A DNA stretch of 64,000 bases from Botryllus schlosseri (taxonomy: Eukaryota), in NCBI GenBank assembly GCA_051294905.1, contig CM119371.1, forward strand, positions 5,334,001-5,398,000. Direction: 5' to 3'. A program made the translations under genes and the position numbers. The notes under the pieces are model-generated. The model was not told the DNA's origin. It made no database searches and saw only the letters and a program-made list of their open reading frames with translations. This document shows positions 427 to 51,343 of the stretch, in pieces. Positions within the stretch are counted from its first letter, which is position 1; each line of letters starts with the position of its first letter.

Positions 427-1527
427 CTACTCTACTGTATGTGTATTTCCATGTCTTTTCAAGCTACCAAACCGGGTAAACGCTTTTCCGCACGTCTGGC
501 ATGAATAATTTTTGACTCCCGTATGTGTATGTACATGTCTATTCAAGTTACTAAGCTGGGTAAACACTTTTCCGCAGATCTGACACGCATAGTTTTTTAC
601 TCTAGTATGTGTATTTTCATGTGTTTTCAAGTGACTGAGCTGAACAAACACTTTTCCACAGATCTGACACTCATGGTTTTTGACTCCAGTATGTGTATTC
701 CCATGTCTTTTTAAGTCACCAAGCTGGGTAAACGCTTTTCCGCAGACCTGACATGCATAGTTTTTGACTCCAGTATATGTATTCCCATGTCTTTTTAAGT
801 CACCAAGCCGGGCAAAAACTTTTCCGCAGATCTGACATGTATAGTTTTTGATTCCAGTATGTGTATTCTCATGTGCCTTCAAGTGGCCGATCTGAGCAAA
901 CGCTTTTCCGCAGATCTCACATGCATAGTTTTTGACCCCGGTATGTGTATTTTCATGTCTTTTCAAGCCACGAAGCTGGGTAAACGCTTTTGTGCATATC
1001 TGACATGCATGGTTTTTGACTCCAGTATGTGTATTTTCATGTTGTTTTAAGTTACCAAGATGGATAAACGCCTTTCCACAGATCTGACACTCATAGTTTT
1101 TGACTCCAGTATGTGTATTCTCATGTGTTTTCAAGTCTCCGATCCGAGCAAACGCTTTTCCGCAGATCTGACATGCATAGCTTCCAGTATGTATATTTCC
1201 ATGCATTTTCAGGTCGCCAACCCGCACAAACGACTTTCCACAGATGTCACAGTCGTGGTTTTTGACTCCAAGGTGAACAGTACGTGTATCCGCATGTCTT
1301 TTCAAGTGACCGATCGGATTATACCCTTTGCCAATGCCCTTGCGTTCATGATTTTTCAAATAAGTGTGCGATATTAAATGTTTTTTCAATAAAGTGATTG
1401 CAGCAAAGGTTTTTCCGCAGATCTCACATTCGGTATTTCTGTCTATATGGTGGAATCGCAAGTGAGCTTTCAATCCGTCCTTACAATGGAAGTTCTTTCC
1501 ACAGATCCAGCACATCTTCCTTGTCAT
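427..1527 (-). CDS. Tandem C2H2 zinc-finger protein (ZNF-A), 366 aa, 11 intact + 2 degenerate fingers, TGVKN linkers
   Basis: Repeated C-x2-C-x3-F-x5-L-x2-H-x3-H motifs in 84-bp units. In-frame TAA at 1537-1539 just upstream of the ATG. One finger has H->Y (KRHGNTY) and one lacks the Cys pair (ERKGIGKG...). Confidence 0.92.
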   Translation of the reverse strand: MTRKMCWICGKNFHCKDGLKAHLRFHHIDRNTECEICGKTFAAITLLKKHLISHTYLKNHERKGIGKGYNPIGHLKRHADTRTVHLGVKNHDCDICGKSFVRVGDLKMHGNIHTGSYACQICGKAFARIGDLKTHENTHTGVKNYECQICGKAFIHLGNLKQHENTHTGVKNHACQICTKAFTQLRGLKRHENTHTGVKNYACEICGKAFAQIGHLKAHENTHTGIKNYTCQICGKVFARLGDLKRHGNTYTGVKNYACQVCGKAFTQLGDLKRHGNTHTGVKNHECQICGKVFVQLSHLKTHENTHTRVKNYACQICGKVFTQLSNLNRHVHTHTGVKNYSCQTCGKAFTRFGSLKRHGNTHTVE

Positions 1528-2608
1528 TCTTCTGGATTATCTGTATATTACTTTACTTCTTCAAGCATCACACATCAAACGCTCTCTGCTTGAAAACGAG
1601 TATTCAACGATAGCTTGGAATGAGCTATTACATAGTAATATAATTCCTATATTATAGCAACCCGGTCTAAAATACAGGAGGTATTAGCAAAAACGGACCA
1701 GTGTAATAAATAGCAATACCCCATACGATAATCTGCAAGCCTTCAGCAAATCACAAATTTTGCATAATCACGAACACCAAAATCTATCACGTTGCACAAC
1801 TGATGAATTATTATAGAATACTGGTGCACCAAAATCAACTGTGCATAAACAACAGCGTCAAAATTACAAAAATATTACACTGGTCAACACATTTTTAGGC
1901 AGACAAACGTAAGAGTGGTTTTGGGGGTTCTGAAGGGCACTGATTCCAAATATGACCTTGGTTTTTTTCAAATTCGCTATTGTTGTGGAGATAACCCATG
2001 GGGCTATTTTGACCAAAATCTCCCATTTTCGCGGTAATGACCTGATATACAATCGGCTCAGTCGTACTATAAAGTTTAGAAAATCAATTTACTTGTTATT
2101 TTTACACGCAGAAGACTATTTTAAATCACAATACAGCAACAGCACTATATTTAGGGGTAATAGATTTATCATAGTTACAGATTTCCAAGGATATCATCAT
2201 GTACATAAATAAACTCCAGTCATGTACATAAGTATTTACCTATATACTCAGATAACGTGGCATTAATTCACTCAGTTTCACGTCAACCACCTATTCTAAA
2301 TTTGAAATAATCAGTTGGAAGATAATATTACTGATATATTTCAAATCAAAATTGTTTTTTTTGTAAGATTTTCGCCTGTAAGCTATTTCAATACAATATC
2401 CATTGTATAATACTATTTATTAACTCAAAGACTTTTCAGGTGCCTCTTTTCAAGAGTTAACGGCACACTAAAGGGATTTAAACAGATTTAAAACCAAAAC
2501 CAAGAAGGCAAAGTATGACGCAACAATCAAAATCACAAACACTGAAATTTGCATTGTACTAATGGCAGAATAACAAAATATGAAGTATACGGACATACGG
2601 TACTATAG

Positions 2609-3235
2609 GGTTGCCAGTAAACTCGGCCCGCGGAAAATTCAGCCAGGTAAATTCGGCCTATGACATCAGTAAATTCGGCCCTCCGAGAATACTGTATTAA
2701 AATGTATTACCAACCGTTTTGGATGGCAGGGTATGCGTAGATCGCGTAATCACGGGAGATAGCGCTGATATTCACGGGGACCGGATTTACCGACGGCCGA
2801 ATTCACTCGGTCAATTCGTTCCTCGGAGAATTTTTTTATAAAAATGTATTACCAACTATTAATGTGAATTAATTTCATAATTATATTATTATCAAGTGAT
2901 TTGGAGAACAGGGTATGCGTATAAATATGTATATGTATATATATATGCCGATGTTTACGGGGCGGAATTTACCGACAGCCGAATTCAATCGGTATATTCG
3001 GCCCTCGGAGAACTTTGTGTGAAATTGTATTACGAACTAATAATGTGTATTAGATTACATATTTATAATATTATCAAGTGATTTCGAGGTTAGGGGTTAG
3101 GTTTGGAGTTAGGATTAGGGTTCAGGTTAGGTAATGGTATTGTAACTGTTATTGTTACTCTGGCCCTGGCCGAATTTACCGAAGGCCGAATTCACGGACG
3201 GTCGAAGTGACCGGGGGCCGAGTTTACTGGAAATC
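2609..3235. mobile_element. Mutator-like MITE with internal telomere-like repeats
   Basis: TIR ggttgccagtaaactcggccc / gggccgagtttactggaaatc. Perfect 9-bp TSD gtactatag (2600-2608, 3236-3244). Degenerate GGTTAG repeats at ~3088-3131. Confidence 0.8.
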
Positions 3236-3292
3236 GTACTATAGTAGCAACGCAATTCGTAAATAAACAGTTACACGCACGAAACACATGCA

Positions 3293-3690
3293 CTAATGAG
3301 AAATTTGTAGGTTATAGAGGAAATCTTTTTGTCTACATAGAATAGGTTTGTTCAACTGAATAATAGTAGACTCCAGCACTTTTAGATGAAACAATGACCT
3401 ACCACGCGCAATGACAGTGAACATGAACATATTGTCATCATAGTGCTGTGCACAGGCGAGATTTTCAATCAAATGCTGACCGATTGACGAAACATATGCT
3501 TGGTAACCGTCATAGCAGTCTATTTTGGCAGTCAATTCGCACTGACGTGCAAGCTCCGTGCGAGTATTTGCGCATGCTTTTGACCGAATCAATTTTGGGA
3601 TAGGCTGCTTAATACGCTCAAACAATCTTTGAGATGTACGTCCTACATACCTACTATCACAGTGGCACTTGTATTGGTAAACAACGAGCG
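3293..3690 (-). mobile_element. Penelope-like retroelement 3' fragment (GIY-YIG endonuclease)
   Basis: Minus-strand translation VVYQYKCHCDSRYVGRTSQRLFERIKQ...SSIGQHL...LKVLESTIIQLNKPILCRQK, the typical PLE GIY-YIG domain. Confidence 0.85.
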
Positions 3691-4246
3691 TTATCTTAGC
3701 AGCATGGAAATATCAACCCAATTTCCAAATACCGTAATTTTCCACGTATAATGCGCAAAATTCTCACGATTTTTTGCCCTAAAATATTGGGGTGCGTATT
3801 ATACTTGGGTACAACAAGCCTTGAAAAGAATCTCCCTCGATGAAAAACTTGAAATCACTTCTTTCTTCATGTTTGTTTCCAATCGCGCATCACTTTCAGC
3901 CATCGCGTACAGTAATTCGTATTATAGTGTAACGCGCTGCCAATTAGCGAGAAGCGTGTTGCCAATTACCGAGAGTCGTGCGCACAAGCACGCGATCTCC
4001 TGCTGAGTTGGTTTGCCGTTTGTACTCGAGCGAAATGAGGTCGCTCATAGGCAATCGCGCGCGGTAATTCTCGCTAATTACTCGCGTCAACAACAGCCCT
4101 GAACAGTCACATATCCATATACAAGAGGCCATGTGCGCAAGATATAATCGCTTGCGTAATCAGTCGCATCTCCAACAGACCTGGCGCGCACGATAAAACC
4201 GTTAGTCTGAGCAATCGCATCTGTAATAGACGTCGTGCGCCTAAAC

Positions 4247-7200
4247 CAGTGGTTCTTAACCTTTTCCCCTCCATCGCCCCCTTTCAAAAATTATCGTGCT
4301 CCAGCGCCCCCCAACGTCATATTGTAAGTAATGTAATAAAGACAATGAGTAAGACGGAGGGCCGTAACAGCACTTCGTCAACCCCCCTAAAAACGATTGC
4401 CTTGCGCACCCATAGCGTGATAAACCAAACTTCTGAGGGCTTCGCCCCCAAGAACCCCGTAGCGTGATTTCGATGGCCAGCAAAGTTTGTGCGGCCTGGT
4501 TGCCCTAGGTACCAAAATTTTCTATAATGCATGAATGAATAGGTGGTAATTACATATATAAGTCGCTACTAACTTTTTATCCTCTGAGCCCACGTAATCA
4601 GATTTACCAGTAGCGCCGAGTGAGCTGTTGTATGGGAAAATAAAGGGCACGTAATTAATATTTAAACATATTCGGGCATGCAGATAGGTACAATTAATTC
4701 GTTACCAGGGCCGTAACAGCACTTCGTCAGCCCCCCCCCAAAATAACGTTGGTATTGGGCCCCCCAACGGGTGATAAACCAAACTTCCGGAGGTCTTCGC
4801 CCCCCGACCCCCCTTCGGCTATCCGCTATTTGCTGATACTAGTCATCTACATTGGGTGTCCATTTACGCGAAAAATTTCAATAATTAATGATTGAATTGG
4901 TCAATATGATCGGGAATTGCATGTATATTGATATCAATTTTTATCCTCTCTCTGCTCACGTAAACAGATTTACTGGTAGAGCTGAGTGATGTGTCATTGA
5001 AAAGGTAGGACCCCTCAATAATAATTATACATCTTCGGGCGTATACCCGTTGGCAGGAACGAAACGGTACTTCGTCAGGCCCCCCGAAAAAACTTGGGTC
5101 TTGGGCCCCCATAGGGTGATAAACCGACCGCCCCCCATCACCTTGTTCGCTTTTGCCATGAAATCAGCTGTAGGGGAGACCGGGGACAATTGTAACAATT
5201 TTTGTATTTTCGAACATTACGTGGTTTTCTAACTAAAATGGAACTCAATCAATAATCAATCATGGAAATTTTGGATCGCGAAAATCGTCGCTCAACTGTT
5301 ACAATTGCACCGTACGCCGGGGCAATTGTAACGCCTGTGCGGGTCAATTGTAACAGTGTTATTTATAACCAAAAACAAACGAACTGAATAACAATAATGG
5401 GATCACATATTGTACTATTGAATTTAATTAAAAAAGAGAAGTTTGAACGCTTCCAGGCTACGCCTTCGTGCCTTCTGCATGAGCTTAAGGTGTACAAGTA
5501 ACACATTCATTCCATCATCTCCCTTCACATATTCGGCCTCTTCTAACAAGGTGCTGTAGTTCAGCGTGCATAATGGATTGGGCATTCCGTCATCTGCGAA
5601 GGTGTGAAACAGACCTGGCTAAAATATATTTGTTGAACGGCCTGATGATAGTGTTGCAAAACGAGGACACAACATTGTGTGGCATCAAAGCTTCTGCTCC
5701 GTCCAAAATTAAAATAAATTGTTTAGTGGGCCATGCTCAAAGTCAGGGGATGAGGATTCAGTCATAGGCAAGTTCTTAAGTGACCATTGAAGGTCGACAC
5801 AACAAAAGTCGATCAACACAAGATATGGTAGTAGAATCACGGAAATAACCGGACCCTAAGATTCACATCACCACTTCTATATGGCCGTTCCGACAGAGTA
5901 TCATGGTAGAATTAGTATGACCAGGTAGAGTCTGTTCTGGTATTTAACGTCTGGCTGTTGCAAGATTCATCTGTAGTAGATATGGTATGAACACATATAT
6001 TCAGAATTGAAAAGATATTGTGACGAGGCAAAAGTAGTGTTACAATTGCAAAGAGTGTTACAATTGCCCCTGACACGCTCGACCATGATTAATCTCAGGA
6101 TGGTGCCTTCCCGGCGACGCGAGTCCTAGTTTCCCTGTCATCACGGTAGACTACATGGTAACATTGTTCCAGCTACATATATTGCATTGTAACCACTAGA
6201 GGTTTTATTCTTCAGAACAAATTATTCCTGATCAGAAAATATTTACTCAAGGGTCCAAAATTTAGTTCTTTTGAAATTATTGCGGGGTTTCGCGTCGTAG
6301 CTCAACGTAACTTCAGGTATAGAAGACACAACTACCGCATGTGCACTTAAAATATGAAGGCGATTTCTTCATCCTACTAGCAGTGAGGTCGATTGTTACA
6401 TTTGCCCCGTGTTACATTTGTCCCCGGTCTCCGCTACTGTTTAGCGAGCCAGTGCGAAGCGCGAAAACCTTCGATAATTCATGATAAAATAGGTCAGTAA
6501 GATCGGGAATTGCATATATTGCTATCAATTTCTTGTCCTCTCTGCTCACGTTACCAGATTTACCGGCAGAGCTGAGTGAGGTACAATGTTCCCTCTAAGC
6601 TGCGCACGTGCGCAGTGCTGACACGGTTCTGCGCACAGAAAATCTACGTTGCGCACAACAAATCCGAACTGTTGTCAAGGGTCTGCGCAATGAGTTGTTG
6701 AGTGTGCGCAGACTCATCAAAACGTAGAGCGAACATTGTGTGGTGTCTTGGAAACTGAAGGGCCAGTAACTAATAATTAAACATATTAGGGCGGGCGAAC
6801 CCATTGGTACGACTTCGTTGCATTCGTGACTTCCTGTCTGCTATATCGATCAACAGGGATATCGATTAACAGGAATATCTAGTTTCAAATATCCCTGTCG
6901 TCCAATCGTACTAAACTAAAAGACGCACACGATTTCAAATTGGTATTTCTTCACTGACATATAATTTTTCCCTGCCAGATGAAATTCGTCTTCTGGGGTT
7001 CTGATTGCCAAGACAGGAACATTCGGTGCCAGTCATTTAGGCGCCCTTGGACAATTAAACCTTTAGGTCTTTTGTAGGCTATATATAACAAAGTTTTCGG
7101 TTTTAATTTGCTCTGAATACTCATTAAGGATATGTCCTACCACCACATCATCTACTGCGAAGCAATTTTTCTCCAGCGCCCCCCTGAGCCCAGCGCCCCC

Positions 7201-7283
7201 CATATCGCCCCCTGAGCGTTTCCGCCCCCTTCAAAATCGCCAGCGTCTCTTGGGGGCGCTGGAGGCAAGGTTAAGAACCTCTG
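4247..7283. mobile_element. hAT (Buster/Charlie-like) non-autonomous element nested in 3732-7657
   Basis: TIR cagtggttcttaacc / ggttaagaacctctg. Degenerate TSD gcctaaac/gcctctac. Internal sequence related to 34477-35715 and 51516-52591. Confidence 0.75.
5173..6434 (-). mobile_element. pogo-like deletion derivative nested in the hAT element
   Basis: TIR ggggagaccggggacaa / ttgtccccggtctccgc with TA TSD. Minus-strand remnant EALMPHNVVSSFCNTIIRPFNK resembles the pogo DDE_1 C-terminus. Confidence 0.75.
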
Positions 7284-9190
7284 GCCTCTACCATATCGCC
7301 GCCGGTCTCGCATGCTTAGGCTGCTATCTACTATCATTTAGAGACAATACCGTTAATTGTATAATGATTAGCAATCGCATCTGTAATAGGTCTTGTGCTC
7401 AAGATGCCGTGTCGCTAGCCTGAACTATCGCTTAAAGACAATTCTGTTAATTATACAATGATTAGCGATCGTTATGTCATGATTGTTCAACAGTGACATC
7501 GTAAAACAGAATGACATCATATACTAAATCGGAACTATTCATGTACTGAAATGCAGGGTGCTAACTATACATGGGTACAAGCTTTTTCCCAGAATTTGCA
7601 TGCTATTTTAGGGGTGCGCATTATACATGGGGGCGTACTATACTAGGAAAATTACGGTAGCAATAGCTCTCCTAATTAGATAGATACATGACAAGGAAGT
7701 GTTTGCATTTTCAGAAGAAAAATTTAGCTCACAATGACTGATTGCTTTACTTACAACAAATAGAATCACCGACATATGGTAGTGATAATAATTATATCTA
7801 TTAATATCAAGGAGGGTACGATTACAGTACTTGAAAAATGATCTTTCACTACTTGACTTGAATCATTACAAAAATACCCGATTAGGATTCTGGTACTCGA
7901 ACCATTGTACCCAGACGCGCTAATGACATTTGTACAGTATAAATAAATGAATATATGAACCAACGAAAAAAAGACAGTAATCAAACAGCTCTATGTTGGT
8001 GTTTAATACAAATCACAATGTGACTTTACCCAAACAACATGTGAGACGAACATCAATACTTCCTGCCACCGGACAGAGATGCAAACTTTACGGAACAATA
8101 ATTAATTCAGCGACTGCGATTAATTAGTGTTCCCCATGAACATACAGACACGTATGGTGTTTTGTGGGATTGAAACACTTTTCACTCTTTCAGCTATTCT
8201 CACTACACCCGGACATTTCTTACAGTTGAAATGACAATTTCTGGCGTATATCTCGTCGATTGAGTGGCCGTTGGTGTGATCTTGAGAACAGACTCGGACC
8301 GCTACATTATTCTAGTTGGGTAATTGGAGCAAAATGCCAGTAATATAGTTCTTATCTAATTTGTAAAATATGTTTTTATGATCTTATTTTAATTCTCATC
8401 TAGGGGCTAATGCACGATGTAACGTAACTCGTAGAAATGCAAGGCCAAGGATATAGGAGTATGTGCATTTTCCGCCCGCATATCTGTTGTCACGGTGCAC
8501 ACTATAGCCTATGACGACAGTGTCATACAAATGATCGCATGATCTCATGCATGATCGCAGCTTCATATGATTCATATTTCCGACAGTTAATCACCGAGCA
8601 TATGGATATTTTTTCACAAGAGCTTCCCTCATTTTAAATTAACAATCCACCGAATATTAGCCAATCTTCAGGGCATCAGAATTGCGCCAATTTTCGCTTT
8701 GCAGATCTAAATTATACACTAACAGGTTGCGGCATTATGCTACTCAGATAGTCCATTCATATTTACCATTATATACAACAATAGGACGCTCAGAAACTCT
8801 ATTTTGCGTTATTCGCTATATACTACATATACATGGATACACGGTACTATATAACCATACAATAAATCAATTTATTCCATCAATTTTAATAATACACTGT
8901 GATTGACTCCTAGCCCCAAATCACTTATGGATCGGAAATTGACTATATAATACCAATTCGAGCATTGCTTATTGCGATTTCAAATGTAAGGCCTTCGGTC
9001 GATTTCCAGTTTTGTCTTCACGTTTAGTAGTGAACTAAATATATCGACGATACATTCCTATCAATTCACCCTTTGGTTTGGACGTATAGAACATTTGCGA
9101 GTCAAATCATTTTATTAGAATCTCATTACGTTTATAGCGATTCTATTTAGACGTTTGTCCTATCGCATGACCATACCTAGACGGCCATCA

Positions 9191-12100
9191 CTCTCCCCCC
9201 ACTTTTTTAAAAGGGTAGGTTGTTTTATATAATTCCCTAATACACTACGCATTTTTTTAACTGTGAAACTTTGGTTATTAGCTTCATCGCTGCATTCAGT
9301 TGTTCTATCCCTCACCAATTATAAGGTGAACACACGAATCAAGGGATCGATTCATCTTTTAGTTCTATTTTACATGAATACTTCATGGCTTGTTTCCCCC
9401 GCAAATGCCCGACAAGATCTTCCAATTCTGTGGCAAACGGCTCATACACCGCTCTCCATGTTTTTAGTCTATAATAGTATTGGCGTCGTCATTAAGATCG
9501 GGCTGTTGGAATGGCGCTTTTGACAGCAATACGGATTGCTTACGAAGTTCTTCCAATTCCAATCTAACCTTTATATCCGATTCATTTTGCAACACATATT
9601 CCGTTAGTGGACCATCAAATACCTTACGCAGGAAATATTTTGGCCTTTTATTTGTCGTTACAAACGAGGCAAATATTAAATCTCCACTATGAGATTTTTG
9701 ATGTTTCGGCACGCCCACGTCAACATCCACTTCGGGGCCTATGGGATCGAAAAGATCTGGCGTCCTAAAACTTTTCGACCCGTCGCACTCACATTTTACA
9801 CCCAATGTGACCATATTCCGTGCCTGCACTTCATCACTATTTTCAACGCATATCCTAACGGCGCTGTCACTATTAAATTGGCACGGGTGCGACTATACAA
9901 TTTCTAACGACCTAACATTCGAAACAGCCTCGCGATTGCTGTTTTTCACGTTATCTCCTTGTTTGGCCAAAGTTTTTATTTCCCGCCCTTCACCATCATA
10001 TTCTATTACGGCATGCGTCGACAATGAACACGGAACACCTATTTTGGACTGAGCCAGCTCGTGACTTGCAATTGACGGGCTCTTTAACACCGTATCAATT
10101 GAAGGCAGCGGTATAACCTTGTCTATCCAATGATATCCAATAATATTTAACGGGACATTACCACACGCAAAAGGAATTGAAACCCCATCAATTTCTATAT
10201 ATATCAATGACTCTACCAGTGACGATCCACCTATACCTAATATTGTCGATGTATCCAATTACCCACGTATAAAGCTAATTTCCTCTACGATCGAATAATT
10301 ATCTGCCAAAACTTCAATTTTGTAGCTTAGTCAAATCAAAGCTGTCCAATCGGGAAATAGTCTACTATTCCAGAGTACTACTCAAATAGTTTTTTATTTT
10401 ATTTTTTATATATGCAGACATGTACAACGTTGTCTCTACTTCTACTTGAGTATCAACGCTGACTACTTTGACCAGCGTAAAATTTATTTCCTCTATCTAA
10501 TCAAGTTATCCGGGCAAACTAAATAGAATTGAAGATAATAATTGTTGATGCGCCTTCATATCGACTTCATGGGCATCAGCAGTGGACAATGTAGGCCTAC
10601 GACATTTTCTAAAATACTATCAGCAACTGTATCGACATGTAACATGTATCGGAAAACAGCTATCATGCACCAAATAATCAGCCTATTACTGGGTGATATC
10701 AATATTGTTTCTTCCGCAGTAATAAATTGTTTTTTATCGATCATTTTTGGACGCTGAGAAGGTAATACTACCTGTGGCACCTTCTCTCGATCGAGGGGCG
10801 TTAAGAAAGTCCCCTGTACAATGTGATGATTTGCGTTCGCATTGAGCGACACTCTTTCTGTCATTGACCGTGGTGTCGGGTGATTTCCAGATTCCAACTT
10901 CGTATCTTCTGTGACTTCGGGCGACGACTGAAGGGACCCACACTTCGGAAGAGGTATCACTGGTTCGACTTTTGCCGGCGTCGGCATTTCTAACAGATTT
11001 GAAACTGGGCCTGTGATTTCACTTCTGGCCACTCCAGATTTTGCTTGGCTCCTTAAGACTGGTTCAAGCGAATCGGCGATATTTTTGGTACTCACTTTCC
11101 GGACGGTAGTCAAATAAGTTGTCGCTTGTTTGACCTCTCTTCTGGCTTTTTTGAATAGTTTTGCCGTCTTGTGTAGAATAGACGTCACCTTTTTCACGAA
11201 TTTTGCTTGATGCTGGACACGTGCTGTCACCTGACCTTCATTAGCCCAAGTCGTTAGCTGTCGTTGTTGAGTGGTCTTCATCAGTTGAGTGTTTTTGCGA
11301 AGGGTGCGAGTGTCCTCTTTATGTTTTCGTAGCCAAAATAACTTCATGATTGATTACCGCTCACCTCCCCACTCTTCAGAAATATGTGAAAGTCCACTCT
11401 CTTCTGAAGACGAATCTTCCAGAAGCAACAATGATTACCAGGCGCCTTGAATTACAATTTCGTCGGGTGCCTCCATATGTGTTTGTAGAAAAATCTTGCC
11501 TCCAATCTTGTTAGTAGGAAGATATTGTTTTTTGCCTGGGTTCTTTTGCTTGTAATCCAATTTTGGTGAATCACTGTTGCAGGTGGTGCAGCCTTCGAAG
11601 TGTCTTGAGCTTCCAGCGACCTCAAGGTCCAGTTTAAGATAGCCTATCTGTACGTAATTAGGCCTGATTCATCTCCAGCGAGATGCGTACCTTAATACAA
11701 CCAAATACTCCAATCTTAGAATTTACACTCAAATAGCGACGTTACCATAGCAACAATACATTCATAAAAGGCATCCAACTGTTATTAAAACCTTTTAAAA
11801 TCATACAATTCGACACATATGCGATCCAGACCATATTTCAATCATGTATTCATAATTAACCCAAGATCAAATCATGTTAATTTTCTGTCGAAGGGCTTGT
11901 TACATCGTCACGTGATCGTTTAAGCCTGATCAAGATTTTTTGTGTATTTGTATAATCTAGGGTACTTATCTAGTTTTATGACGGTTCTCACAAGAATCTT
12001 GTCTTGGTTTTATAACCGTCTAACCTCACTCAAGTATAGGGGTCCTAGTTGCTCTTGCGTGAACTAGTTATAACGCATACTAAATAATTCACACAAAATC

Positions 12101-14045
12101 ACACAATTTTCAATATACATTGATTCCAAAAATGCAATAAATACTTACACATATATATGTAATCACTTTACTTCTAAAGGATTTGGCTTGGGACTTTAAT
12201 AACCGTTTTTCTAGGGTGACGCAACATGTGGATATTCGCTTCAGACACCTTTGTTACGCATAACAAGCGTGTTAGATTTGGGTTGTATGTAGGGTGGTTT
12301 TCACTAATCACCTACCTATCGGTAGTTAGTTGACCAAAACGATCACCTAATTTTGTTAATGACCTTCTTCAAGAAGTTATCTGCCTACGGCCTTATATAC
12401 TGTGTCGTAAGTATTTTCTGGGCTATAATACTGACACTATTCCCAGAGAACATCAGATAATGTTTCCTTATAAGGATTATTGGTGGGTAATCACACCTCT
12501 GTTGTTTAACAACAACACGTGTGTGATTAATGGCGTCATATGGGCCGCCGTGGTAGTTACTTTCAACTTAAACGAAAGCTGTAGAGAGTACAGTATACAT
12601 AAACAGTAATCCATAATCTATACCGCTATCGCTAACAGATATGTCATCCTAATTTTAAAGGCATGCTTGTTCCTAATATCGGCATACTACGGATATTCAA
12701 TTAATGCACTAAAGCATACAAGCATTTACAGTTCAACCATAAAATTACGCCATACACCTGAATTACCGTGCCTCATCTCCAATTCAATCTTTGGATTGCA
12801 AAATAAGTAAGTCAAGAAATACGAAATATAATGCATTACAGGCTATACATTAAAATTAGTACTTCACCATATAGGCGAATATACGATTCATAATTGTTTA
12901 CAAATTGCGAATAATGATACAGGACGAGTAGCCACTATTACTTGACATAAATTGTCACTATATTGCTTTAAAAGGGTCATATAAAGACACCATAAAACAG
13001 AGTCTAATAACTCGGTTCACAAGCATTATGTTATTTCGATATCTCAGCTCAGCGTGGATTTTTTCTAACAAAATGACATTCAAACATTAATACAATGCGT
13101 CAAGACTGCTTACTACAACTATAAACTTTTGGTAAATATTATTTTTGATTAGCCTATATCTAGATACTCGATCCTTATCCATTATGAGCTCCTAGTACTA
13201 TAAAGACATATTTTATTCATTTCCGAAATATGCTCAATTTCAAATCTTCCACTTTTTACTACATTCTGACACTAGTCAACAACATCTTTACAATTAATAC
13301 AACTAATCTTGCTCGCGTGATGCTTCTACTGGCAAAATACGGTTCATTTGTTATCATTACATTTGCATTTTAAGATCCGACTATATACTTCTGATATCCG
13401 CTAACACTATCCTATTTCTCGAATCCAAAAAGGTCTGGAATCACCGTCCTGTTTAGATCCGCGCTAATACAATAATGACGGCGACTAACGTATTACCCTA
13501 TATTTAATGTGTGACGATCAACATCTGGCCATATGTCCAAGCTTCCGGTATTTAAATTCAGCTAACTTCCTCATCGCATCACTCGGGCATTTAACTTGGT
13601 GATGTATTTTCTAGTTTGTGATGTCATCAACCTCAATTTAATTTCACTTTTGGTTTTAACAAATAAAACAGTTTTATATAAACGCTTTGTGTTGCATCGT
13701 TATTCAACATTTTGAGCAGTCCGTAGATTTTGATAATAATCCGTGATATCTCAAAACATACACAACGGTCCGAATTTTAGATAGCGCCAGTTAGCCATAG
13801 TTGCTATGCATTCATCAGCGTAACTAAATCCTAGAATTACGGGTCCCCAATTGATGATCGTTTGGTTATAATAACCGTAATGCCACGGTTTTTCCCGCTT
13901 CTATGCCGACTCGTTTATCAATCCCTTTCCTAATTGTGTCACATTATATTTCGCCTGCAAACATATTCACATATTTTATATCGGTATTTGTGATAAATTA
14001 CATCGGTATTTGTAATAAATAACATAAATTCACGGGGCTCGATTT
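9191..14045 (-). mobile_element. Highly decayed LTR-retroelement (Gypsy-like) internal region(s)
   Basis: Minus-strand polypurine tract aaaaaagtggggggagag followed by TG at ~9190. Protease-like ILGIGG...PLNIIG (10258-10120). Integrase-like TP.YNP.SN.LV.R at ~12280. Weak RT-like MNRIFA...FLD.LLI at ~12850. Knuckle-like KLGHMARC at ~13530. PBS-like remnant at ~14030. No matching LTR pair found. Confidence 0.55.
10556..11347 (-). other. 263-aa basic, Thr/Pro-rich ORF of unknown function inside the decayed retroelement
   Basis: Uninterrupted 792-nt ORF immediately upstream of the protease-like segment. No recognisable domain. Confidence 0.35.
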
Positions 14046-15852
14046 TATAGAACTACTAAAGTAGTATTAACACCTTTATTTCCCATTTCTGCCTTAAAAG
14101 CACACAGGTTAATGTAATTTCCACCCGGTAAAAAGCAGTGTGCCCATTAATAATTTTCCGTTTATGACACGGCGGACTTCGCATGAGCGCCGGGACGAAA
14201 CACCGTTGACTTAGGGCAGATCGTGCACAAGCTCCCTCATCTAATGTCTGGATATCTTGAAAATGCTACAGGAGAAATGTATCATGCGGAACGAGGCAAG
14301 CTTAGTGTACAGACGTTTGCCATTCTCGTGCCTGAACTCTTGATTTGGTATGAACTAAACTTGATTATGGGTGTAGTTTGATTCAATTCCATTAGGCTAC
14401 TAAGTTTTTTTCAAAGTCAGACATTCTAATTCTAGTCATATTTGGAAAAAAACTGTTAGTATAATTCTGATTTTAATCTCATTGGGAAAAGCAGTAAATT
14501 TTCTAGTTGTCGAAATCACGTTGTGAACATACAATGGAACTTTTTGCATTTTTTTTAACAATACAGCATTTCCAATTGCCACACAAGAATGTGATAGTGA
14601 CACATATTTCATGTAGCGAGTTACAAATTCAAAAGTCACTTTATTTTGGCCGAAAACACGGCAGATTAGGTCAGGGAGAAGACTTCTCAATGTCAGGGGC
14701 ATACCGATGAATTGCTGAAGACTGTCAGTGAAATTATCATTTTTGTGACTTGACTCGTGACTTTTGACTGAAAATTTTCTTAATGGCAAACACAAATTGA
14801 GTTCAAAATAGCAGTGACTCGAAATGACTTTTGACTTGATCCCAATGCTATGTCGACAACTGATAGCAGGACTAAATATCAACACTCTGCCATACCCACA
14901 CAAATTACAAAATAAACAAGCAAAATATGGTGGCCTACTGGTACGATAACATGAAAAACTGTCTCTCAAATTACAAAATCCGATTGCACCGTGCATTGTA
15001 TTCAAAGGTCTTAAGATATCACTGCTCGAAAACATCACACAGAATCGGCTGATTGCGTCAAAAGTATATCAGGCCAGCATAAACAATAAATCGCTGTTAT
15101 TTTATAATCGTGTCCATTGTAACTCTACAGAATGTGCCAGACTTGTACGAACAACCCTCCTGGTTAGTTGACGGTAAACTGATTTATATTTTAGGCAGTT
15201 CTTATTCCAGTTCTAGTTGCGGCATTTCAAAAGTGAGTAGTTCTAGTTGCGGATTTTGAAAAGCCAGTAAACAGACGACAGATGGCAATTTATTACTTAT
15301 CACAGATAAACGAATATGAATGAAGATGATGATATAACCTGTAAAGACCATATTACATCGTCTGAAACATACCTGTGGAGTGACACAGTGCACTCATGTT
15401 ACCGTAATAGAAGAAACACAAATAAATAACAAGACAGCAGTCGTGTCAAGGTGCTAGTCATAGCAATATAATGTTGACATCACTAATCAGAGGCAAAAGC
15501 ATGGAACACTGTACCTGACTAGAATTAAGATATTCCAGATATGGTATTTTCGATTCATGCCCAGCCAGAACTTTGATAAATATAAGCCTATCAGGAACAA
15601 TGTTCTGAATTTTTGATCCCATATAGCATATTCAATAGACTGTTGAATCAATCTAAAGTTAATGCAGTGTACCGTACATAAAAGCTGACTTGATTACATT
15701 CTTGTGTCGCAGTGGAATAACATGCACAGTAGCATATTGTCTTGGTACACGACTGGAAAGCACTGTATCACAATGCAAAACGTACCACAACAAGCTATCA
15801 AGATCAGCCTGACTACTATTTATTGACAACTTCCTATAATACCCACGTGCCA

Positions 15853-15878
15853 ATTGGGCTCGAAAGTCACGTGACTTT
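15853..15878. promoter_or_regulatory. Palindromic GTCACGTGAC (extended E-box/CLEAR-type) site, copy 1
   Basis: 16-bp perfect palindrome aaagtcacgtgacttt. A 25-bp block here is identical, inverted, to 19593-19617. Confidence 0.45.
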
Positions 15879-16787
15879 TCAGCATAGCAACCACCGTCTG
15901 GGGCCAAGCGCGTTTCTGGTAGCATCTTCTCTGCGACAGTAATGCATTTGTATGTCGCAATTTCTGCTACTGCGCTGGTCTTTGCTGTCACATTATGTGT
16001 TTGTGTTACGAAAGTGGCTAAAACAGGATTGATTTTTTTTCGTGCAGATAGATGACAATGTATAGTATTCAATTAACATGATGGATTAGAGCAGTTTAAG
16101 ATAGCCTATGTCAAACAAGTAATTCCAAGGTTTAGTACCTTCATCTGGACCTACTAACTATTCATCGTATGGCTGCAGCATTATTATGCTTCAAGTGTAT
16201 ACTTATCGACACGGAGTCAGTGATCAGTCAACATTAGAGATTAGTAATATTGTAACATTACCGTACCGTGTTAAATTTGATTTCAGATGGATTTGGTTAA
16301 GCTACTTTTACGATTTGCGAGTTCTTCAAAATTAATCCGAATCTGGTCAGAAGAAGTCAAAATGATTTAGACAACGACCATCCAACATCAGCAATGTATG
16401 GTGGTGATGGCAGAGAATTGGGAAATATTCAGTTCAGCCATGAGTAGAAAGAAAGTTTATGACGTAGAGGTTGGTAACTGCAAAATTACGTGAAAGATTG
16501 GGGAAGCGTTGGAATTGAGTTCGAATCCCACTTGACGCAAGTGGGTCGGAGGCTTATCTGGACTCCCCAATGCTTACCTAACTACATGAGCAGCGTCATG
16601 TAATCAAGCCCAGATGGCTAAGTAAAGCCGATGACGCTTGAAAATCGGCACCACTGACGAGGACGCATGGAAGCAAGCAAGAGAAGAAAGATGGTGAACG
16701 AATGGGTGACAGGAACTCAGAAAAAGCTTATCAAAAAGCAAAGAGACCTTTGAACTTTAAAGCATTTATGTTGTGGTGCAAACAGAC

Positions 16788-16965
16788 GATCATCATCATC
16801 ATCATTGCTTTATTAGCAATTTTATCAGTTCAATACACCGCAAAATGCGATACAATGAGAAGACAGGAAGATGTCGAAGCGACTTGGAGTAGTCTATGGA
16901 ATCAGACACCCATCTTGGCCTAGGCGATGTAAAGAGGAGGCATGCACACTGAATGAAAGTAAAGA
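16788..16965 (-). mobile_element. Non-LTR retroposon 3' end (AATAAA + (GAT)n tail), copy 1
   Basis: Plus strand reads (cat)n-tgctttatt. Body is homologous to 20274-20420. Confidence 0.55.
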
Positions 16966-19592: not shown

Positions 19593-19617
19593 AAGTCACG
19601 TGACTTTCGAGCCCAAT
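19593..19617. promoter_or_regulatory. Palindromic GTCACGTGAC site, copy 2, next to a CpG-rich stretch
   Basis: aagtcacgtgactttcgagcccaat, the inverted exact match to copy 1. Confidence 0.45.
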
Positions 19618-44418: not shown

Positions 44419-47400
44419 TGCAGCAATTAGAGCTTATATTCTCTGATGATCTGTATAAAAGTACAGCTAACCAATCGTCTTGGTGCTCGGCTATACAATA
44501 CTTATCTCGAGAAGCTGTTGCCTTGGGTGAAGTTCTTCGTACCAGATATATGCTCAATACAATGGTTTATTTGACGTTGATGCAGTAGTAGCGTATAGAG
44601 TCTCAATCATAATAATCATGTAAAACACTTGTTACAGACACTTATGTACTTAGTCTGGACTCTCGAGTAATCTCAACAAGAAGTAGTTTCTTATTCGAGA
44701 CATAGCAAAATATCATGGACGAGTGATCACAGCGGAATAGCTGCATTATTTTCACTCGAAAAGGGAATTAATTACGAATAATTAAGGAAAAAGCCAATTA
44801 GATTATACGACCATGAATGACAAAATCGATTTACTATGTCGAATACAATTTTGGTACAGAAAGGTCACCCCGTCCCCCATTAAAAAGGAAATCGGATAGT
44901 AACAATCACGAGTAAAGACTTTTAATTTCAACGACCCTTTAAGTAATTAGGCCTACACGGGTTCGGTTTTAGTCTGAGCATTGCAAGAGCAAGGTTTTAT
45001 ATTGCTTTTCTAATATACAAGTTAACCTAAATTGGAATAACACAAAGAATTGAATCCTAAGCAAATAGTAAGCCTAACAGATACAAATACATCCACGTGA
45101 CAGCCCAAATCATCATGTGTGACCGCCGCTGTTCACGTGAAGGCAAAATTAACTTCAGTGTGTGGCCGGTTTATGTACAATAGTGGCCATTTCAAACATT
45201 GCAATATCTCGGTCGATATTGTGACTTAGAGTAACCAACATACTCAAGTCCGCGTAAACTTCAGTTTCGGGCCGTGGCCCATATGCACCAGTGTGTTCCT
45301 GGTCAGTGAAATTCGTACAAAATCTCGATCGATAATGTACATGTGTTTCCGGCGTACAACTGCTACTCAACTCATGTGTGCCTGCACTTTTGCGTCCACG
45401 TGCAGGCATCCTGGTGGAGTCTGGCATCGTTTTCGGTTGTAAAAACTGCGTAATTATCGTCTGCGATTCGTGGCATGTCTGATTCACACAGCCGTCAGCG
45501 TATAGCTGTTGGGGGGCTAGAGATACGGCATGGCTACGTACGCGTGTTGGCGCTATAGTGTCGGCCAATGATTGCAGATGTGGGATATCTTCGGTCAGTC
45601 GGTCGATCGTTAGCGGATATCGATACAGTTTCGTCGGTGAAATCGCGGCGAACTGTTGCTGTCGACTGTTGCAGACGTTGCAGTTGCAGTGCACGTGGTG
45701 TCGGAATCGTACCGAAGTATATTGCCAGGTCGTTGTTGTTGAGTAGGTCGAAATCGTTTCGATGAATTCGCACACATGAGTATGAGATTGGTACGCCGGA
45801 ACGCGGAGCGTGGACGACGGACACGTATATATTCGCCAACTCTGTAAAAAAACCTCACGACAGCATCACGTGGAAAGGGCATATAGCACTATTACAATTG
45901 GCACAAAATAACGATACAAGCATGAAAGAAAACACACAATCTATCAATAAGCGACCAGTCTGATAAGGCAAACCTAAACCTAATTATGAAGCTGTTGACA
46001 ATATCAGAAACAATAAAAAAGAATAAGGCACGGTATTCCCTGACAGCGTTGCAAGCAAGGGGTCAATCTCTGGCGCATGCAGAAAAAAATGTAGGGAGAG
46101 AACGTGCGAAAAAAAAATTTCTGCACGTGGCAGAAGTATAAATGTAAAATGTACAGAAAGTCTGCTAACTAGCGAACTCCTTGATGTAAGTCAAACATGT
46201 CTGTTAAATTGCAATCCAAGTACTAAATTCCCGGTGCGGCCGGGGTCATGGTTTACGTAATCTTGACAGCGGAGGTGCGATTGATAGGTACTGCTGAGTT
46301 TTGTAAAGATAATTCCAAACAACTCATCAGATTTCAACTGACACGCAAGGAGTTACTGAATAGCTGCTCTGCTCACGAGGCATGGCGTAATTGAAACAAT
46401 TTAAGGATTTATTAGATATGTCAGTCAGTAATGGAATTATCAGTCAAACTTACATTGATCAATGTAGGATGTTATCATACAGAGTACTGTTATATGTCTG
46501 CGATGATTTGAAAGCTGAAGTTAATATGAAATCACTTTTTGAAATGCCATCAGAACACCATTACTCAATAGTGGATTATTTGAATGAAGGATGCGTCATT
46601 CCGCAATGGTGTCTGGCGATTATGCTGAACCAGAAAAGCTGTATCGCGAAATTACACTTCTTCGCTAAAAGCGTTACGTAACTCAAGAATCCGTTGGGTT
46701 TGAAATCAGCGGAGCACGTGGCGATATGGAGTGTACCCTAAAACACTGTTTTAACATCGAAAGCTGAAAACCACATATGCGTTTTGTGTAAGGTATCCGT
46801 CAATGCATTGAAGAAAAAAAACACAACGATTTCCGTAACTATAATATTCCGTAATTTAAACGGGACCGTTATCTATGAATCCAGAACCAATTTACGCAGT
46901 TCAGTTATATCATCTGACCGAACAAGATATGTCATATTTATACCGAATTTTATGATAGGTCTTGCGCTGAGTACGTTGCATTGCGGCGTTCACAATGTTG
47001 ACTTCGAATTCACCGATTACACCTAAATAGCGGAGGCCATTATAGCTAAGTAGGTTACTCATGATACGCGTTGTATCGCATAATAATGCTTTTCGACATA
47101 ACATTCAAATGTACTTAAAATCATACACGAGGTTGCGGTACTGTTCAAACGTTTTATCGTGTAAACCAGGAGATTCGCTAAAAGAAGACGCATTCAGCCC
47201 TGTCTCGTTCAAACTGCCCGCAGATTGTTTAGAGCAAGAGCTTTATTCCCCAACCTCACAGCGAATTGGAACATCTTAAAATCCATTAACCATAAGTATA
47301 CCAGATATTACATCCAAATACATATATAGTCACTCCGGTTCACACTCACGCGCGTAACGAAATCACAGTCGCCGATTTCCGCATCTAATCCCCAAATACA

Positions 47401-48613
47401 TGTGAGCGTGGCCGTATAAATTGCAAAATTATCGCTGATTCTTCTCAAGCAAATGTGGGACAAATCCATTATTGCGTATGGTAATCCCATAATATTGGGC
47501 TTAACGAATTCTACAACTGTGTAAGAATATCATTCTATTTGTACACATGATACTTCCCCATATTAGGCTAACGAATTCAAGCAAAAGCTATCCAATACCT
47601 GATTATACATTGGTCCATATCTTTAGCATATTATCTTGGTTTTGAAAAATCATAGATTAGTGATACCTGAACGCGTATCGAATGTAATGCGCTTCAGTTA
47701 GTAAACAACCAAAGTCAATTGCCTTTGCGTGTCAGTCATACATTGTCTCAGAGAAGCTGAGCTATTCACTGTCGGCGCGACGGCTGAAGTCACGACATAA
47801 TTCTGAACGGGAATGCGATTTAAATCTTGCGGTTCGACAATAGTCGGATCGTCCGCAATGTCCGCAACTCGGGCTTCGCATAAATACGTAGGCCCGTTTT
47901 TAACAACGCTGATAGGAAGAGTGTGCCTAATTCTTTCATCGGCAATACTGGGTAAAGCAGCTTCGTGCTTAACATATTTAGCGTGACCGATTACAGAGTT
48001 AGGCTCGGTATCCTTATCAGCAATAACTGGTTGCTTATCATTACTATCCATTTAGACACTTTAGCAAACACTTGTACATGACAATATTGAATATGCAACG
48101 ATATAACAATAACAGTCAAAAATCACTAACACATACACAGTCAATAGGGTCTGCTGTCGTGAAGTTTTCAACAGAAATCGACAATTAAAACGTGTACCGT
48201 GTTCGTCCGTGAAGAATGTCCTTGTCGTCGATAGCAAAAACGTCAGTCCCAGTATTGAAGTTGTATATCTCACGACTGTACTCGGGGCCCATGCAGCAAT
48301 TAGAGCTTATTGTCTCTGATGATCTGTATAATAGTACAGCTAACCAATCGTCTTGGTGCTCGGCTATACAATACTTATCTCGAGAAGCTGTTGCCTTGGG
48401 TGAAGTTCTTCGTACCAGATATATGCTCAATACAATGGTTTATTCGACGTTGATGCAGTAGTAGCGTATAGAGTCTCAATCATAATAATCATGTAAAACA
48501 CTTTCAGGCACTTATGTACTAGTCTGGACTCTCGAGTAATCTCAACAAGAAGTAGTTTCTTATTCGAGACTAGCAAAATATCATGGACGAGTGATCACAG
48601 CGGAATAGCTGCA
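44419..48613 (-). mobile_element. Non-autonomous LTR retrotransposon (Gypsy-derived), 4.2 kb
   Basis: Direct LTRs 44419-44745 and 48292-48613, both TGCAGC...GCTGCA, with few differences. 4-bp TSD atac. Minus-strand PBS-like TGGGCCCCGAG. Decayed protease-like LNSTATSCMI...LLSYNG..LGVIGEFEVNI at ~47150-46980. Confidence 0.92.
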
Positions 48614-50239
48614 ATACCTAGTCTCGATGATACCCCTTGAAACACTTCACACTATCCGGGTTGTAGATAATAAGTGGGGGCGTTTCACGCTGTTGTGACG
48701 CATTTTGTTGATAACATGCGATAGTGGTGAATCCTGAATCTTTTGTATACATAATCAGTAACGAAGTATGTATAACGATATTTTTCTAATTTTGGTCAAG
48801 TACATTTGCCGACTTGCATGACTTATTAAAGTAGCTGTTTTTTTTAATTACTTTATCTCACAATTTTATAGACAGAACTGAAGTTTATGTTAAGTGTGAT
48901 CTAAGATAGGGCTGTTTAGCAGTTACGTTATGAACGCCATTGGTGTCACGGTAATTACATATAGTTCCTAGTGTCGGAAACTGCACAAATTTGTGATGCC
49001 TACAGTCGTTTTGCGTACGTTATTACTTTTCAAATCTGCATTTTCCACTTCCACTTGAACTAGCTTGGGCCTATCGTTGGGAATCACTACTTATAGGCCT
49101 ACTTGTAAGTCATTCTTCTCATAGAACTATGAATCACTGGGATAAGCGACTGAGTTAACAAAACACACTATTTAACAACAATATGGGCCGCTAGCAACAG
49201 ACTGGTACGTACTGCTTGATTTCTAAAACACGTGACTAGAACTAGAACACTCATTTTTCAAAATCTTCGAATGGAACTTCTCACAACCCACTAGTTCGTT
49301 GACCGTGAACCAACATGATTTGTAGATAGTCCAAGTCTGCTCTGCTCTGGCCGCAACCAATATTGAAAGCAATTGCGACACGAACTTCAAGAACCAACGC
49401 TTATAAGTTGTCAGCACGGATCGGATGTAACAGCCCAGCGTTTGTTGCTGACCTGACAGCTTCCCACGAATGTACAACGAGATTTGCCTCTTCACATGTA
49501 GGCTATTAATCGGATAAGTCAACGCAATATGTTGTAGGTAATGTAGGCTATGTATGTTGAGAATGTGCACCAGAGATACATAGTAGCAGATGTACTTATA
49601 GAGAATAATAGCGTGAGACATCTTAAATACGTTCAACGTTCATGATAATCATTTGAGACATCAAGCAGTTAATCGAGGTATCGTTGTACCAATGCGCCCC
49701 GACCAGCTGACCAGTGCCCGTCATAACGGTACAGAACATGAAATTCGTAGTCGGTACCCCTTTCTGCCAACTGGTCACGTATAAGACTGGGCACAATGAT
49801 TTGAGTAAAGTTTTTAAATATATGATTTTATACCAAATAATTAAAGAATTAGTCACCGTAAATACTAGTTTATTCAAATCCAAATTTTTCTACTGCAATA
49901 CCTTCGCTTCTAGTGGTTGAAATGGAGCCAAATTCGGTGTGCATCATCTCTTCTGACAGCCTAATAATTTTATGGGGTTGATAGAAAAACTTTAAAACTT
50001 TTTTTTTTGGTATTTTTCAATGATAAATTCAGAACTTTCCACTGCAAGAATTTCGCTTCTACTGGTTGAAATTGAGCGAAAGTTGGTGCGCAGCGTTTAT
50101 TTGTAACCAACCTAACAATTTTATCAAGTAGCAAGTGAAATCTGACGGAAAACTTGTTTTTTGAACAGTCATATTGGATATTCATATGACGCTTGAGGTT
50201 AGCCGTCCCAGTAAATGCTTTCCAACATACATCACATTA

Positions 50240-51343
50240 TTACTTTTTGTTACCAGCATGCATATCCATATGACTCTTGAGGTGGCCCTTCTGAGTAAAT
50301 GTTTTCCCACATATATCACATTCATGCCTTTTGGTTCCAGCATGCATATCCATATGACACTTGAGGTGTTCCTTCTGAGTGAATGCTTTCCCACATATAT
50401 CACATTCATGATTTTTCACGCCCGCATGGATATCCATATGATTATTGAGGGTACCCTTGCACACAAATGAGTTCCCACATATATCACATTTGTGATTTTT
50501 GGTACCGACATGCATATCCATATGAAGCGAGAGCTGGCGAATCTGAGTGAATGCTTTTCCGCATATATCACATTTGTGATTTTTCACGCCAGCATGGATA
50601 TCAATATGTTTGTTGAGGCTACTCTTCTTCACAAATGAATTCCCACATATATCACACTTATGATTTTTTATACCGATATGCACTTTTATATGGTGTGTGA
50701 GGTCTCCCTTCCAAGTGAATGCTTTCCCACAAACATCACATTTGTGATTTTTGTTACCGGCATGCATATCCATATGATGCGAGAGGTGGCCATTCTGAGT
50801 GAATGCTCTTCCACATATATCACATTTGTGATTTTTCACGCCAGCATGGATATCCATATGTTTGTCGAGGCTACTCTTGTGCACAAATGAATTCCCGCAT
50901 ATATCACATTCATGATTTTTGTTACCGACATGCACTTTTATATGGTTCGTGAGGTCTGCCTTCCGAGTGAATGCTTTCCCACAAACATCACATTTGTGAT
51001 TTTTGTTACCGGCGTGCATATCCATATGAAGCGAGAGGTAGCTCTTCCGAATAAATGCTTTCCCACATATATCACATGTATGATTTTTGACGCCAACATG
51101 GATATCCATATGACGTTCGAGGTTTCGCTTGGCAGAGAATGCTTTTCCACATATATCACATTGGTGCTTCTGGGCGCCAATATGTATATCCATATGAGAC
51201 TTGTACTGACTCTTCCAATTGAATGATTTACCACATATATCACAGTTGCGATTTCCGATGCCAGCATTTTCACAAGCATTGAGCTTGCATTTCACTTTTG
51301 GAGAAACTGGTTTCTTGGCTATATCGCACAGATGACCTTTCAT
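50240..51343 (-). CDS. Tandem C2H2 zinc-finger protein (ZNF-C), 367 aa, 12 intact fingers, AGVKNH/AGNKNH linkers
   Basis: Intact ORF. Paralogous to ZNF-B including the 5' flank and acceptor tgtttag. A degenerate extra finger follows the TAA TAA stop. Confidence 0.92.
   Translation of the reverse strand: MKGHLCDIAKKPVSPKVKCKLNACENAGIGNRNCDICGKSFNWKSQYKSHMDIHIGAQKHQCDICGKAFSAKRNLERHMDIHVGVKNHTCDICGKAFIRKSYLSLHMDMHAGNKNHKCDVCGKAFTRKADLTNHIKVHVGNKNHECDICGNSFVHKSSLDKHMDIHAGVKNHKCDICGRAFTQNGHLSHHMDMHAGNKNHKCDVCGKAFTWKGDLTHHIKVHIGIKNHKCDICGNSFVKKSSLNKHIDIHAGVKNHKCDICGKAFTQIRQLSLHMDMHVGTKNHKCDICGNSFVCKGTLNNHMDIHAGVKNHECDICGKAFTQKEHLKCHMDMHAGTKRHECDICGKTFTQKGHLKSHMDMHAGNKK

Follow-up and report, generated by a model that had tools for sequence, protein, structure and literature searches.

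Clusters of zinc-finger (ZNF) genes with a KRAB domain are found in tetrapods, for example on human chromosome 19; KRAB-ZNFs are marked by recruiting the corepressor TRIM28 and silencing transposons. To our knowledge, the clustered, fast-evolving ZNFs of vertebrates are the best-known genome defence against transposons, and they always act through an added repressor domain. For the vertebrate poly-zinc-finger (poly-ZF) expansions, excerpts of Emerson and Thomas (2009, PMC2604467) report an excess of amino-acid change at helix positions -1, 3 and 6, and give the ZAD genes as mostly without positive selection (fly and mosquito are entered as N/S in Table 2). Passages of Wells et al. (2023, PMC10547256) describe the FiNZ genes of cyprinid fish, with a 28-residue acidic N-terminal domain on a separate exon, and state that ZNF numbers track retroelement numbers across animals. 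For Styela clava, 154 zf-C2H2 genes of two kinds, ZBTB and plain, are given in an excerpt of PMC8122590, and the literature searched listed no paper that deals with a cluster of zinc-finger genes in a tunicate or with K-N linkers, as judged on titles and the openings of abstracts. Here, three arrays of C2H2 fingers are described from a 64,000-nucleotide (nt) stretch of the Botryllus schlosseri genome (the window: positions 5334001-5398000 of C1, a 41.8-Mb contig in an assembly of 495.5 Mb and 219 contigs). To judge by their sequence, they belong to a real, mostly intact and rapidly diversifying finger-only family with an altered linker and apparently no effector domain. The favoured reading, to which a probability of about 0.6 is given with its gene model and target steps included, is that of a young, lineage-private DNA-binding family shaped by clustered duplication and decay, mainly on this one chromosome-sized contig.

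A clustered family of finger-only genes

Six ATG-initiated open reading frames (ORFs) of at least 150 residues occur in the window, and three of these are poly-C2H2 arrays, named ORF1, ORF2 and ORF3 (equally W1, W2 and W3; paralogs are numbered L001-L017). All three match Pfam zf-C2H2 (E-values 3.2e-66, 8.4e-25 and 3.2e-64, respectively) and consist of tandem Krueppel-type units (C-x2-C-x12-H-x3-H), and every one of the 31 intact C-x2-C-x12-H-x3-4-H motifs found in a six-frame regular-expression scan of the window lies within them. An earlier note on this DNA had described three ZNF ORFs made of fingers only, each with an in-frame stop shortly upstream of its ATG and one of them dying, and all of this holds. 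ORF1 has 5 residues before finger 1 and 2 residues after its last finger. The 32-residue leader of ORF3 is itself one decayed 28-residue finger period with two zinc ligands lost, and the C-terminal end of this ORF is a double stop within a linker. The upstream stops lie at 1537-1539 (ORF1), 28150-28152 (ORF2) and 51371-51373 (ORF3), with the stop-to-stop frames opening at 1536, 28153 and 51370. ORF2 is the dying copy: it retains a leader, four intact fingers and a truncated fifth, and a 25-nt deletion near 28655 (repeat spacing of 227 instead of 252 nt) causes a frameshift, with four more fingers out of frame at 28620-29069.

ORF1 (subfamily 1) has 220 matches in the genome (1328 first-look candidates, 112 scored). 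On C1 lie 148 of the 150 listed, in clusters at 4.0-6.5, 9.6-10.3, 21.9-22.1, 32.4-32.7, 34.7-34.8 and 36.9-37.2 Mb. ORF3 (subfamily 2) has 205 matches, with 116 of the 150 listed on C1. The 95 N-terminal residues of ORF1, a segment present a single time in each gene, give 45 matches at E <=1e-15; 18 matches of at least 73% identity fall within C1 4.09-6.50 Mb, and a further group of 47-71% identity falls within C1 21.89-22.13 Mb. Synonymous divergence (dS) between paralog pairs ranges from 0.006 to 0.36, internal stops are present in 22 of the 150 listed ORF1 matches (128 have none), and open frames in the family reach 1386 residues. The dS range, the copies with stops and the broken ORF2 support the earlier note's proposal of a birth-and-death cluster, and the family would have grown and decayed by local and segmental duplication in clusters. 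Its claim of lineage specificity is likewise supported by public proteins: among the 120 matches listed per search, identity to ORF1 does not exceed 52%, nor identity to ORF3 50% (word-index searches in the 201-643-residue length class). An exhaustive profile-free search with the N-terminal 116 residues of ORF1 gave no public match above 43% identity among the matches listed. The public-protein searches were dominated by generic poly-ZNFs. Two pairs of paralogs are nearly identical: L006 (C1:4196636) and L007 (C1:4086986) share 99.5% of their nucleotides, inverted and 110 kb apart, and L001 (C1:5745255) and L002 (C1:4146979) share 99.2%, 1.6 Mb apart. These appear to be very recent segmental duplications, or possibly assembly duplicates.

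The linkers of both subfamilies depart from the TGEKP[YF] consensus. Residue counts over 247 fingers of subfamily 1 (ORF1 and 14 paralogs) are T 213, G 208, V 192, K 207, N 225 and Y 195, and over 40 fingers of subfamily 2 (ORF3 and two paralogs) A 27, G 39, V 14 or N 9, K 37, N 31 and H 39. The linkers retain their 7-residue length and the G and K; V, I or N stands in place of E and N in place of P (225 of 247 and 31 of 40 fingers), and in subfamily 2 A takes the place of T. These per-position counts confirm the replacement of TGEKPY by TGVKNY/H or AGVKNH/AGNKNH that the earlier note had read from the window. A genome-wide count of these linkers, proposed in the same note, was made with exact degenerate DNA patterns and returned 316 HTGVKN[YH] and 682 HAGxKNH linkers against 32 canonical HTGEKP[YF] (reversed-pattern controls 0, 1 and 0), that is, 998 K-N linkers to 32, or about 31:1, the canonical copies being dispersed. 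In the TGEKP linker, according to an excerpt of PMC8084297, G gives flexibility, K contacts the phosphate backbone, E assists finger-finger contacts and P fixes the next finger, and an excerpt of PMC4359306 reports that phosphorylation of the linker T reduces DNA binding. Compared with these roles, the linkers of the window family keep G and K but replace E and P, and the phosphorylatable T is A in subfamily 2. About 1000 natural linkers without the conserved proline and glutamate would thus amount to a natural experiment on what the TGEKP linker does.

Whole-gene ratios of nonsynonymous to synonymous substitution (dN/dS) are 0.27-0.77 in 12 pairs, ten of them between 0.33 and 0.48. When helix positions -1, +2, +3 and +6 are separated from the other 24 finger positions in ten pairs, the pooled contact codons have dN 0.309, dS 0.177 and dN/dS 1.75 (536 codons; above 1 in nine of ten pairs), against dN 0.059, dS 0.231 and dN/dS 0.26 for the other codons (3216 codons). 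As dS at contact codons is not above that at other codons, misalignment is not the cause of the contact dN excess. Per-position entropy is 2.2-3.0 bits at -1, +2, +3 and +6 (2.2-2.9 bits over the 247 fingers of subfamily 1), versus 0-0.3 bits at C, F, L, H and K(+5), and the linker is conserved in the same analysis. All 247 of 247 fingers, chosen by their motif, keep the zinc ligands, and F, L and K, on which the choice did not depend, hardly vary. Purifying selection acts on the finger framework and on the G-[VIN]-K-N linker, and the four DNA-contact positions outpace silent sites. This combination suggests that the proteins are made and that their binding specificity is diversifying, and the genes look functional and DNA-binding. 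At the codon level the family follows the same selection pattern as the vertebrate poly-ZF expansions. The excess at contact residues fits an arms race but names no target.

A constant head is common to all subfamily-1 genes, the variable fingers coming after it, and the same head is retained in the 22-Mb cluster. Its fingers 1 and 2 are atypical, with the odd linkers HLIDRNTE and HTFLKNHE, finger 3 lacks both Cys and one of its His in all copies, and the contact residues of finger 4 are fixed. The head was also considered as a constrained effector, which was rejected as unsupported (dN/dS 0.60 versus 0.40 in the body).

Gene model and alternative explanations

Upstream regions were compared in 17 paralogous loci taken with about 7 kb of upstream DNA, subfamily 1 comprising ORF1 and L004-L017 and the compared set of subfamily 2 comprising ORF3, ORF2, L001 and L002. 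In subfamily 1, TAA-TCC-AGA-AGA-ATG or a one-base variant is present in 15 of 15 copies, the frame opening three codons before the common ATG; in subfamily 2 the frame opens 7-9 codons before the ATG in all four copies with an intact leader. Within subfamily 1, similarity to ORF1 extends about 190 nt upstream (90-120 nt in one clade) and then breaks. Upstream of the stop, an acceptor-like motif (CTAAT, a pyrimidine tract and [CT]AG) is kept in 15 of 15 subfamily-1 copies, and a corresponding acceptor-like motif, TTCTAAT...TTGTTTAG, about 84 nt upstream of the ATG, is kept in W3, W2, L001 and L002. With start, preceding stop and acceptor-like motif all kept in 15 of 15 paralogs, an exon located upstream would not be a coding one. 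The ORF1 exon likely starts at window position 1666, which is 139 nt ahead of the ATG, the in-frame stop lying between the two. Beyond it, the block at 1727-1877 is found in the same orientation and collinear in eight loci (W1 and seven of 14 fetched paralogs), 0.3-5.4 kb from the ATG, and ends at GTATG in seven of the eight aligned copies, those extending that far. The block resembles a first exon with an intron of 60 nt to 5 kb behind it. When it is joined to either candidate acceptor, the resulting frames have stops and lack an ATG; thus, if it is an exon, it would be non-coding. Two other blocks, at -2.7 to -2.2 kb and -6.1 to -5.8 kb, were tried as exons and rejected, as they are the two ends of a transposon present in both orientations.

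Searches for an effector were negative within their scope. No cluster common to the subfamilies was found among upstream sense ORFs of at least 20 residues (1.8-6 kb upstream of 39 genes, 3009 peptides). The largest cluster holds 16 genes (members unlisted) at a median of 113 nt from the frame opening, where the conserved leader of subfamily 1 lies, and the remaining clusters are repeat-like and lie at scattered distances. In 20 further loci on nine contigs, 1-67 codons separate the opening of the array frame from the first intact finger. Pfam gave no match for 116 of the 117 non-ZNF window ORFs of at least 75 residues, the exception being a residual finger, and KRAB had 0 matches in these 117. 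KRAB (PF01352) and ZAD (PF07776) both had 0 six-frame matches in the genome, in searches run without a positive control. We infer one coding exon per gene, without a separate effector domain.

Reads show that spliced-leader trans-splicing takes place in this organism. Within the window, 11715-11691 (-) is connected with an exon that begins at 18336 (-) by 22 reads, which have 12 start positions and 25 nt on their shorter side; the acceptor of this exon is preceded by CTAAT, a pyrimidine tract and TAG. The acceptor-like site of ORF1 has the same layout as this read-verified acceptor, and as trans-splicing is seen at 18336, the acceptor-like sites of the zinc-finger genes could be trans-splice sites. 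Whether by cis or by trans splicing, the upstream part of these genes would be non-coding either way: the mRNA would begin with a short spliced non-coding exon or a trans-spliced leader, with an acceptor about 85-140 nt upstream of the ATG.

A different gene model has an effector, KRAB-, FiNZ- or ZAD-like in role but belonging to no named family, encoded by a short N-terminal exon that is spliced to an AG after the in-frame stop, the visible ATG then being internal. Such an AG is present between stop and ATG in 14 of 15 subfamily-1 copies (TCCAG, 1532-1536 in ORF1; lost in L012) as well as in W3 (GTGTAG, 51363-51368), L001 and L002, the FiNZ domain has only 28 residues on its own exon (excerpt of PMC10547256), and the upstream screen covered only ORFs of at least 20 residues within 1.8-6 kb. 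However, the acceptor-like site upstream of the stop is stronger and fully conserved, and the sole block that is collinear upstream lacks an ATG and is interrupted by stops in the frame to be joined. Moreover, none of the upstream sense ORFs of the 39 genes is common to the subfamilies, the ATG is kept together with its context in 15 of 15 copies, and the stop-to-ATG region of subfamily 2 resembles the tail of a decayed finger, not a spacer. An effector exon of this kind is considered improbable. The earlier note had argued for effector-less genes from the in-frame stops; these are present, but the argument is weak by itself, as an AG follows the stop in both subfamilies. Its conclusion is nevertheless supported by the conservation of the stops (15 of 15 and four of four copies), the acceptor-like site, the 0 matches to KRAB and ZAD and the lack of a common upstream ORF. 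The AG after the stop counts against the favoured reading, as do several other points. The KRAB and ZAD searches have the weakness already given. The head has a higher dN/dS than the body (0.60 versus 0.40), at amino-acid identities of 83% and 73%, respectively. The dN/dS values are simple pairwise counts from non-independent pairs, which gene conversion or finger shuffling may distort. RNA depth on ORF1 is about 0.1 (window 1-20000; one bulk RNA run, about 6% of it read). Three other runs ("RNA?" contig sets) cover genes and repeats alike and are probably DNA.

If the arrays were non-functional, a decaying or selfishly amplifying 84-bp repeat with open frames, then the broken ORF2, the 22 listed matches with stops and the RNA depth on ORF1 (a weak sample) would be as expected. 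Such a repeat would not account for a dN/dS of 0.26 over 3216 framework and linker codons, for zinc ligands kept in 247 of 247 motif-chosen fingers and near-invariant F, L and K that were not chosen, or for open frames of up to 1386 residues and 128 of 150 listed matches without a stop, and this explanation is regarded as very improbable. The targets are a separate matter. In the favoured reading these would be rapidly changing parts of the genome, the likeliest being the transposons or satellites that abound locally. The proteins would either keep other factors off the DNA by occupying it or bring in partners by means of their constant N-terminal fingers. The earlier note's idea of a family that recognises transposons or acts as a competitor is a reasonable hypothesis. 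Alternatively, a real finger-only family may be aimed at satellite or centromere DNA, host promoters, recombination sites or RNA and not at transposons. Diversifying selection at contact residues is silent on the target, and what speaks against such other targets is circumstantial: ZNF numbers track retroelement numbers (excerpt of PMC10547256), and the clusters are repeat-rich. Targets other than transposons are unlikely, though a serious contender.

Neighbouring features of the window

Coordinates of the arrays and of the features around them are collected in Table 1. The 3.9-kb transposon has an empty site in L004, a 95%-identical paralog of ORF1, and inserted after the ORF1/L004 duplication. 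Shorter copies of this element lie near other paralogs in both orientations, and its ORFs have no Pfam match, nor does the internal ORF of the LTR-like pair. Altogether, 48.5% of the window has matches elsewhere in the window or in other cluster loci totalling 262 kb, and no transposase or reverse transcriptase domain was found by Pfam in the 117 non-ZNF ORFs of at least 75 residues. Nested transposons had been proposed in the earlier note, which is supported in part: the elements at 3732-7657 and 22465-24965 and the repeat-rich surroundings agree with it, but no transposon protein was found in those ORFs and the nesting itself is putative.

Table 1. Zinc-finger arrays, putative transcript parts and repeat elements in the window (LTR, long terminal repeat; UTR, untranslated region; uORF, upstream ORF).
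Feature	Position	Strand	Description
ORF1	427-1527	-	366 residues; 11 intact fingers and decayed ones; TGVKN[YH] linkers; subfamily 1
Constant head of ORF1	1183-1527	-	ORF1 residues 1-115: fingers 1, 2, decayed finger 3, finger 4
Putative ORF1 5' UTR	1528-1666	-	TAA 1537-1539; two short uORFs; acceptor-like AG 1667-1668
Putative mini-intron	1667-1726	-	60 nt; starts GTATG
Candidate non-coding first exon or promoter block	1727-1877	-	160-nt block recurring upstream of paralogs
3.9-kb non-autonomous DNA transposon	3732-7657		TA target-site duplication; 12-bp perfect terminal inverted repeats
2.5-kb element	22465-24965		154-nt inverted repeats, 97% complementary; related copy 59984-61350
ORF2	28174-29069	+	Broken subfamily-2 copy; ATG-ORF part 28174-28812, 212 residues
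LTR-like pair	44419-48503		212-nt direct repeats (44419, 48292), 98% identical, 3.9 kb apart
Residual decayed finger	50180-50236	-	Just past the ORF3 stop codons; weak zf-C2H2 match, E 4.7e-4
ORF3	50240-51343	-	367 residues; leader and 12 intact fingers; A/V-G-x-K-N-H linkers; subfamily 2
Putative ORF3 5' UTR	51344-51426	-	TAA 51371-51373; acceptor-like AG 51427-51428

The trans-spliced end at 11691-11715 (-) is a 25-nt spliced-leader-like sequence directly followed by GT, and 539 reads have a template-switch-oligo-like tail immediately 5' of 11715. The leader core is present in 218 genome copies at <=1 mismatch, which diverge right after ...TAAG. The window copy departs from the abundant transcript 8 nt past the GT and may be an incomplete copy of the gene for the leader RNA; an Rfam search of the site gave no match. 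The sole clear RNA depth in window 1-20000 is at about 16000-18336 (-), trans-spliced at 18336 (10-25 per strand in the raw-read run). The ORFs at 17603-17977 and 17178-17489 in this transcribed region have no Pfam match. As 16676-17342 is very high-copy in the contig runs, the transcribed region may be a repeat. Three other ORFs of 199-276 residues, at 10556-11347 (-), 14436-15035 (-) and 62841-63671 (+), belong to no Pfam family, and the first of these adjoins the leader-like sequence and has a modest RNA depth of 3-4. Outside the window, L038 (C9:15068570) and L039 (C9:15025585), 43 kb apart, have intron-split GH6 domains with a WVKTPGESDG motif; they resemble tunicate cellulose-synthase-type genes in two copies.

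Comparison with known zinc-finger clusters

The family shares with KRAB-ZNFs the single-exon, tandem 28-residue C2H2 units, the clusters formed by local duplication, the pseudogenes among intact copies and the excess of change at helix positions -1, 3 and 6 (excerpt of PMC2604467), and the combination by which KRAB-ZNFs are recognised, clustered birth-and-death with positive selection at DNA-contact residues, is found in it. It differs in that no KRAB match was found in window or genome (the genome search having no positive control), there is no spacer between start and fingers, the linker is T/A-G-x-K-N-H/Y and not TGEKPY, and the host is a tunicate-like invertebrate chordate. FiNZ genes are similar in being lineage-private, with hundreds of fingers mostly on one chromosome, young duplicates, positive selection and a proposed arms race with transposons (excerpts of PMC10547256). 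However, no shared upstream coding exon was found in the window family among ORFs of at least 20 residues within 1.8-6 kb upstream of 39 genes, and the similarity is limited to generic fingers. ZAD-ZNFs of insects are likewise a lineage-specific clustered C2H2 expansion, but no ZAD match was found in the genome, in the search without positive control, and contact-residue dN/dS is 1.75 in the window family. Domain-less poly-ZF proteins (without KRAB, SCAN or BTB; the best public matches, unnamed or "ZNF708-like") also have a long uninterrupted array with 7-residue linkers. These best matches have a non-finger N-terminus of 250-300 residues and K-P linkers (TGVKPF; TGEKPH), whereas genes of the ORF1 type start 5 residues before finger 1 and have K-N linkers.

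The same selection signature without any added domain would make the family a natural experiment on whether finger arrays are able to act alone. A stronger claim, that an invertebrate chordate conducts a KRAB-ZNF-style arms race without an effector, with about 1000 K-N-linked fingers diversifying their contact residues against transposons or satellites and silencing these by occupancy or through the head of modified fingers as a partner-binding module, is speculative and on balance doubtful; if true, neither the TGEKP linker nor a dedicated repressor domain would be needed for such a system. As no public protein closely resembles the family, genome annotation will miss or mislabel what may be a hundred genes or more. 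Gene clusters of this type are already familiar in mammals, fish and insects, and the finding is in kind an expected one. In its sequence features the family resembles in kind the KRAB, FiNZ and other lineage-specific poly-ZNF clusters without belonging to any of them, and thus appears as a real, lineage-private variant of the known birth-and-death poly-ZNF cluster.

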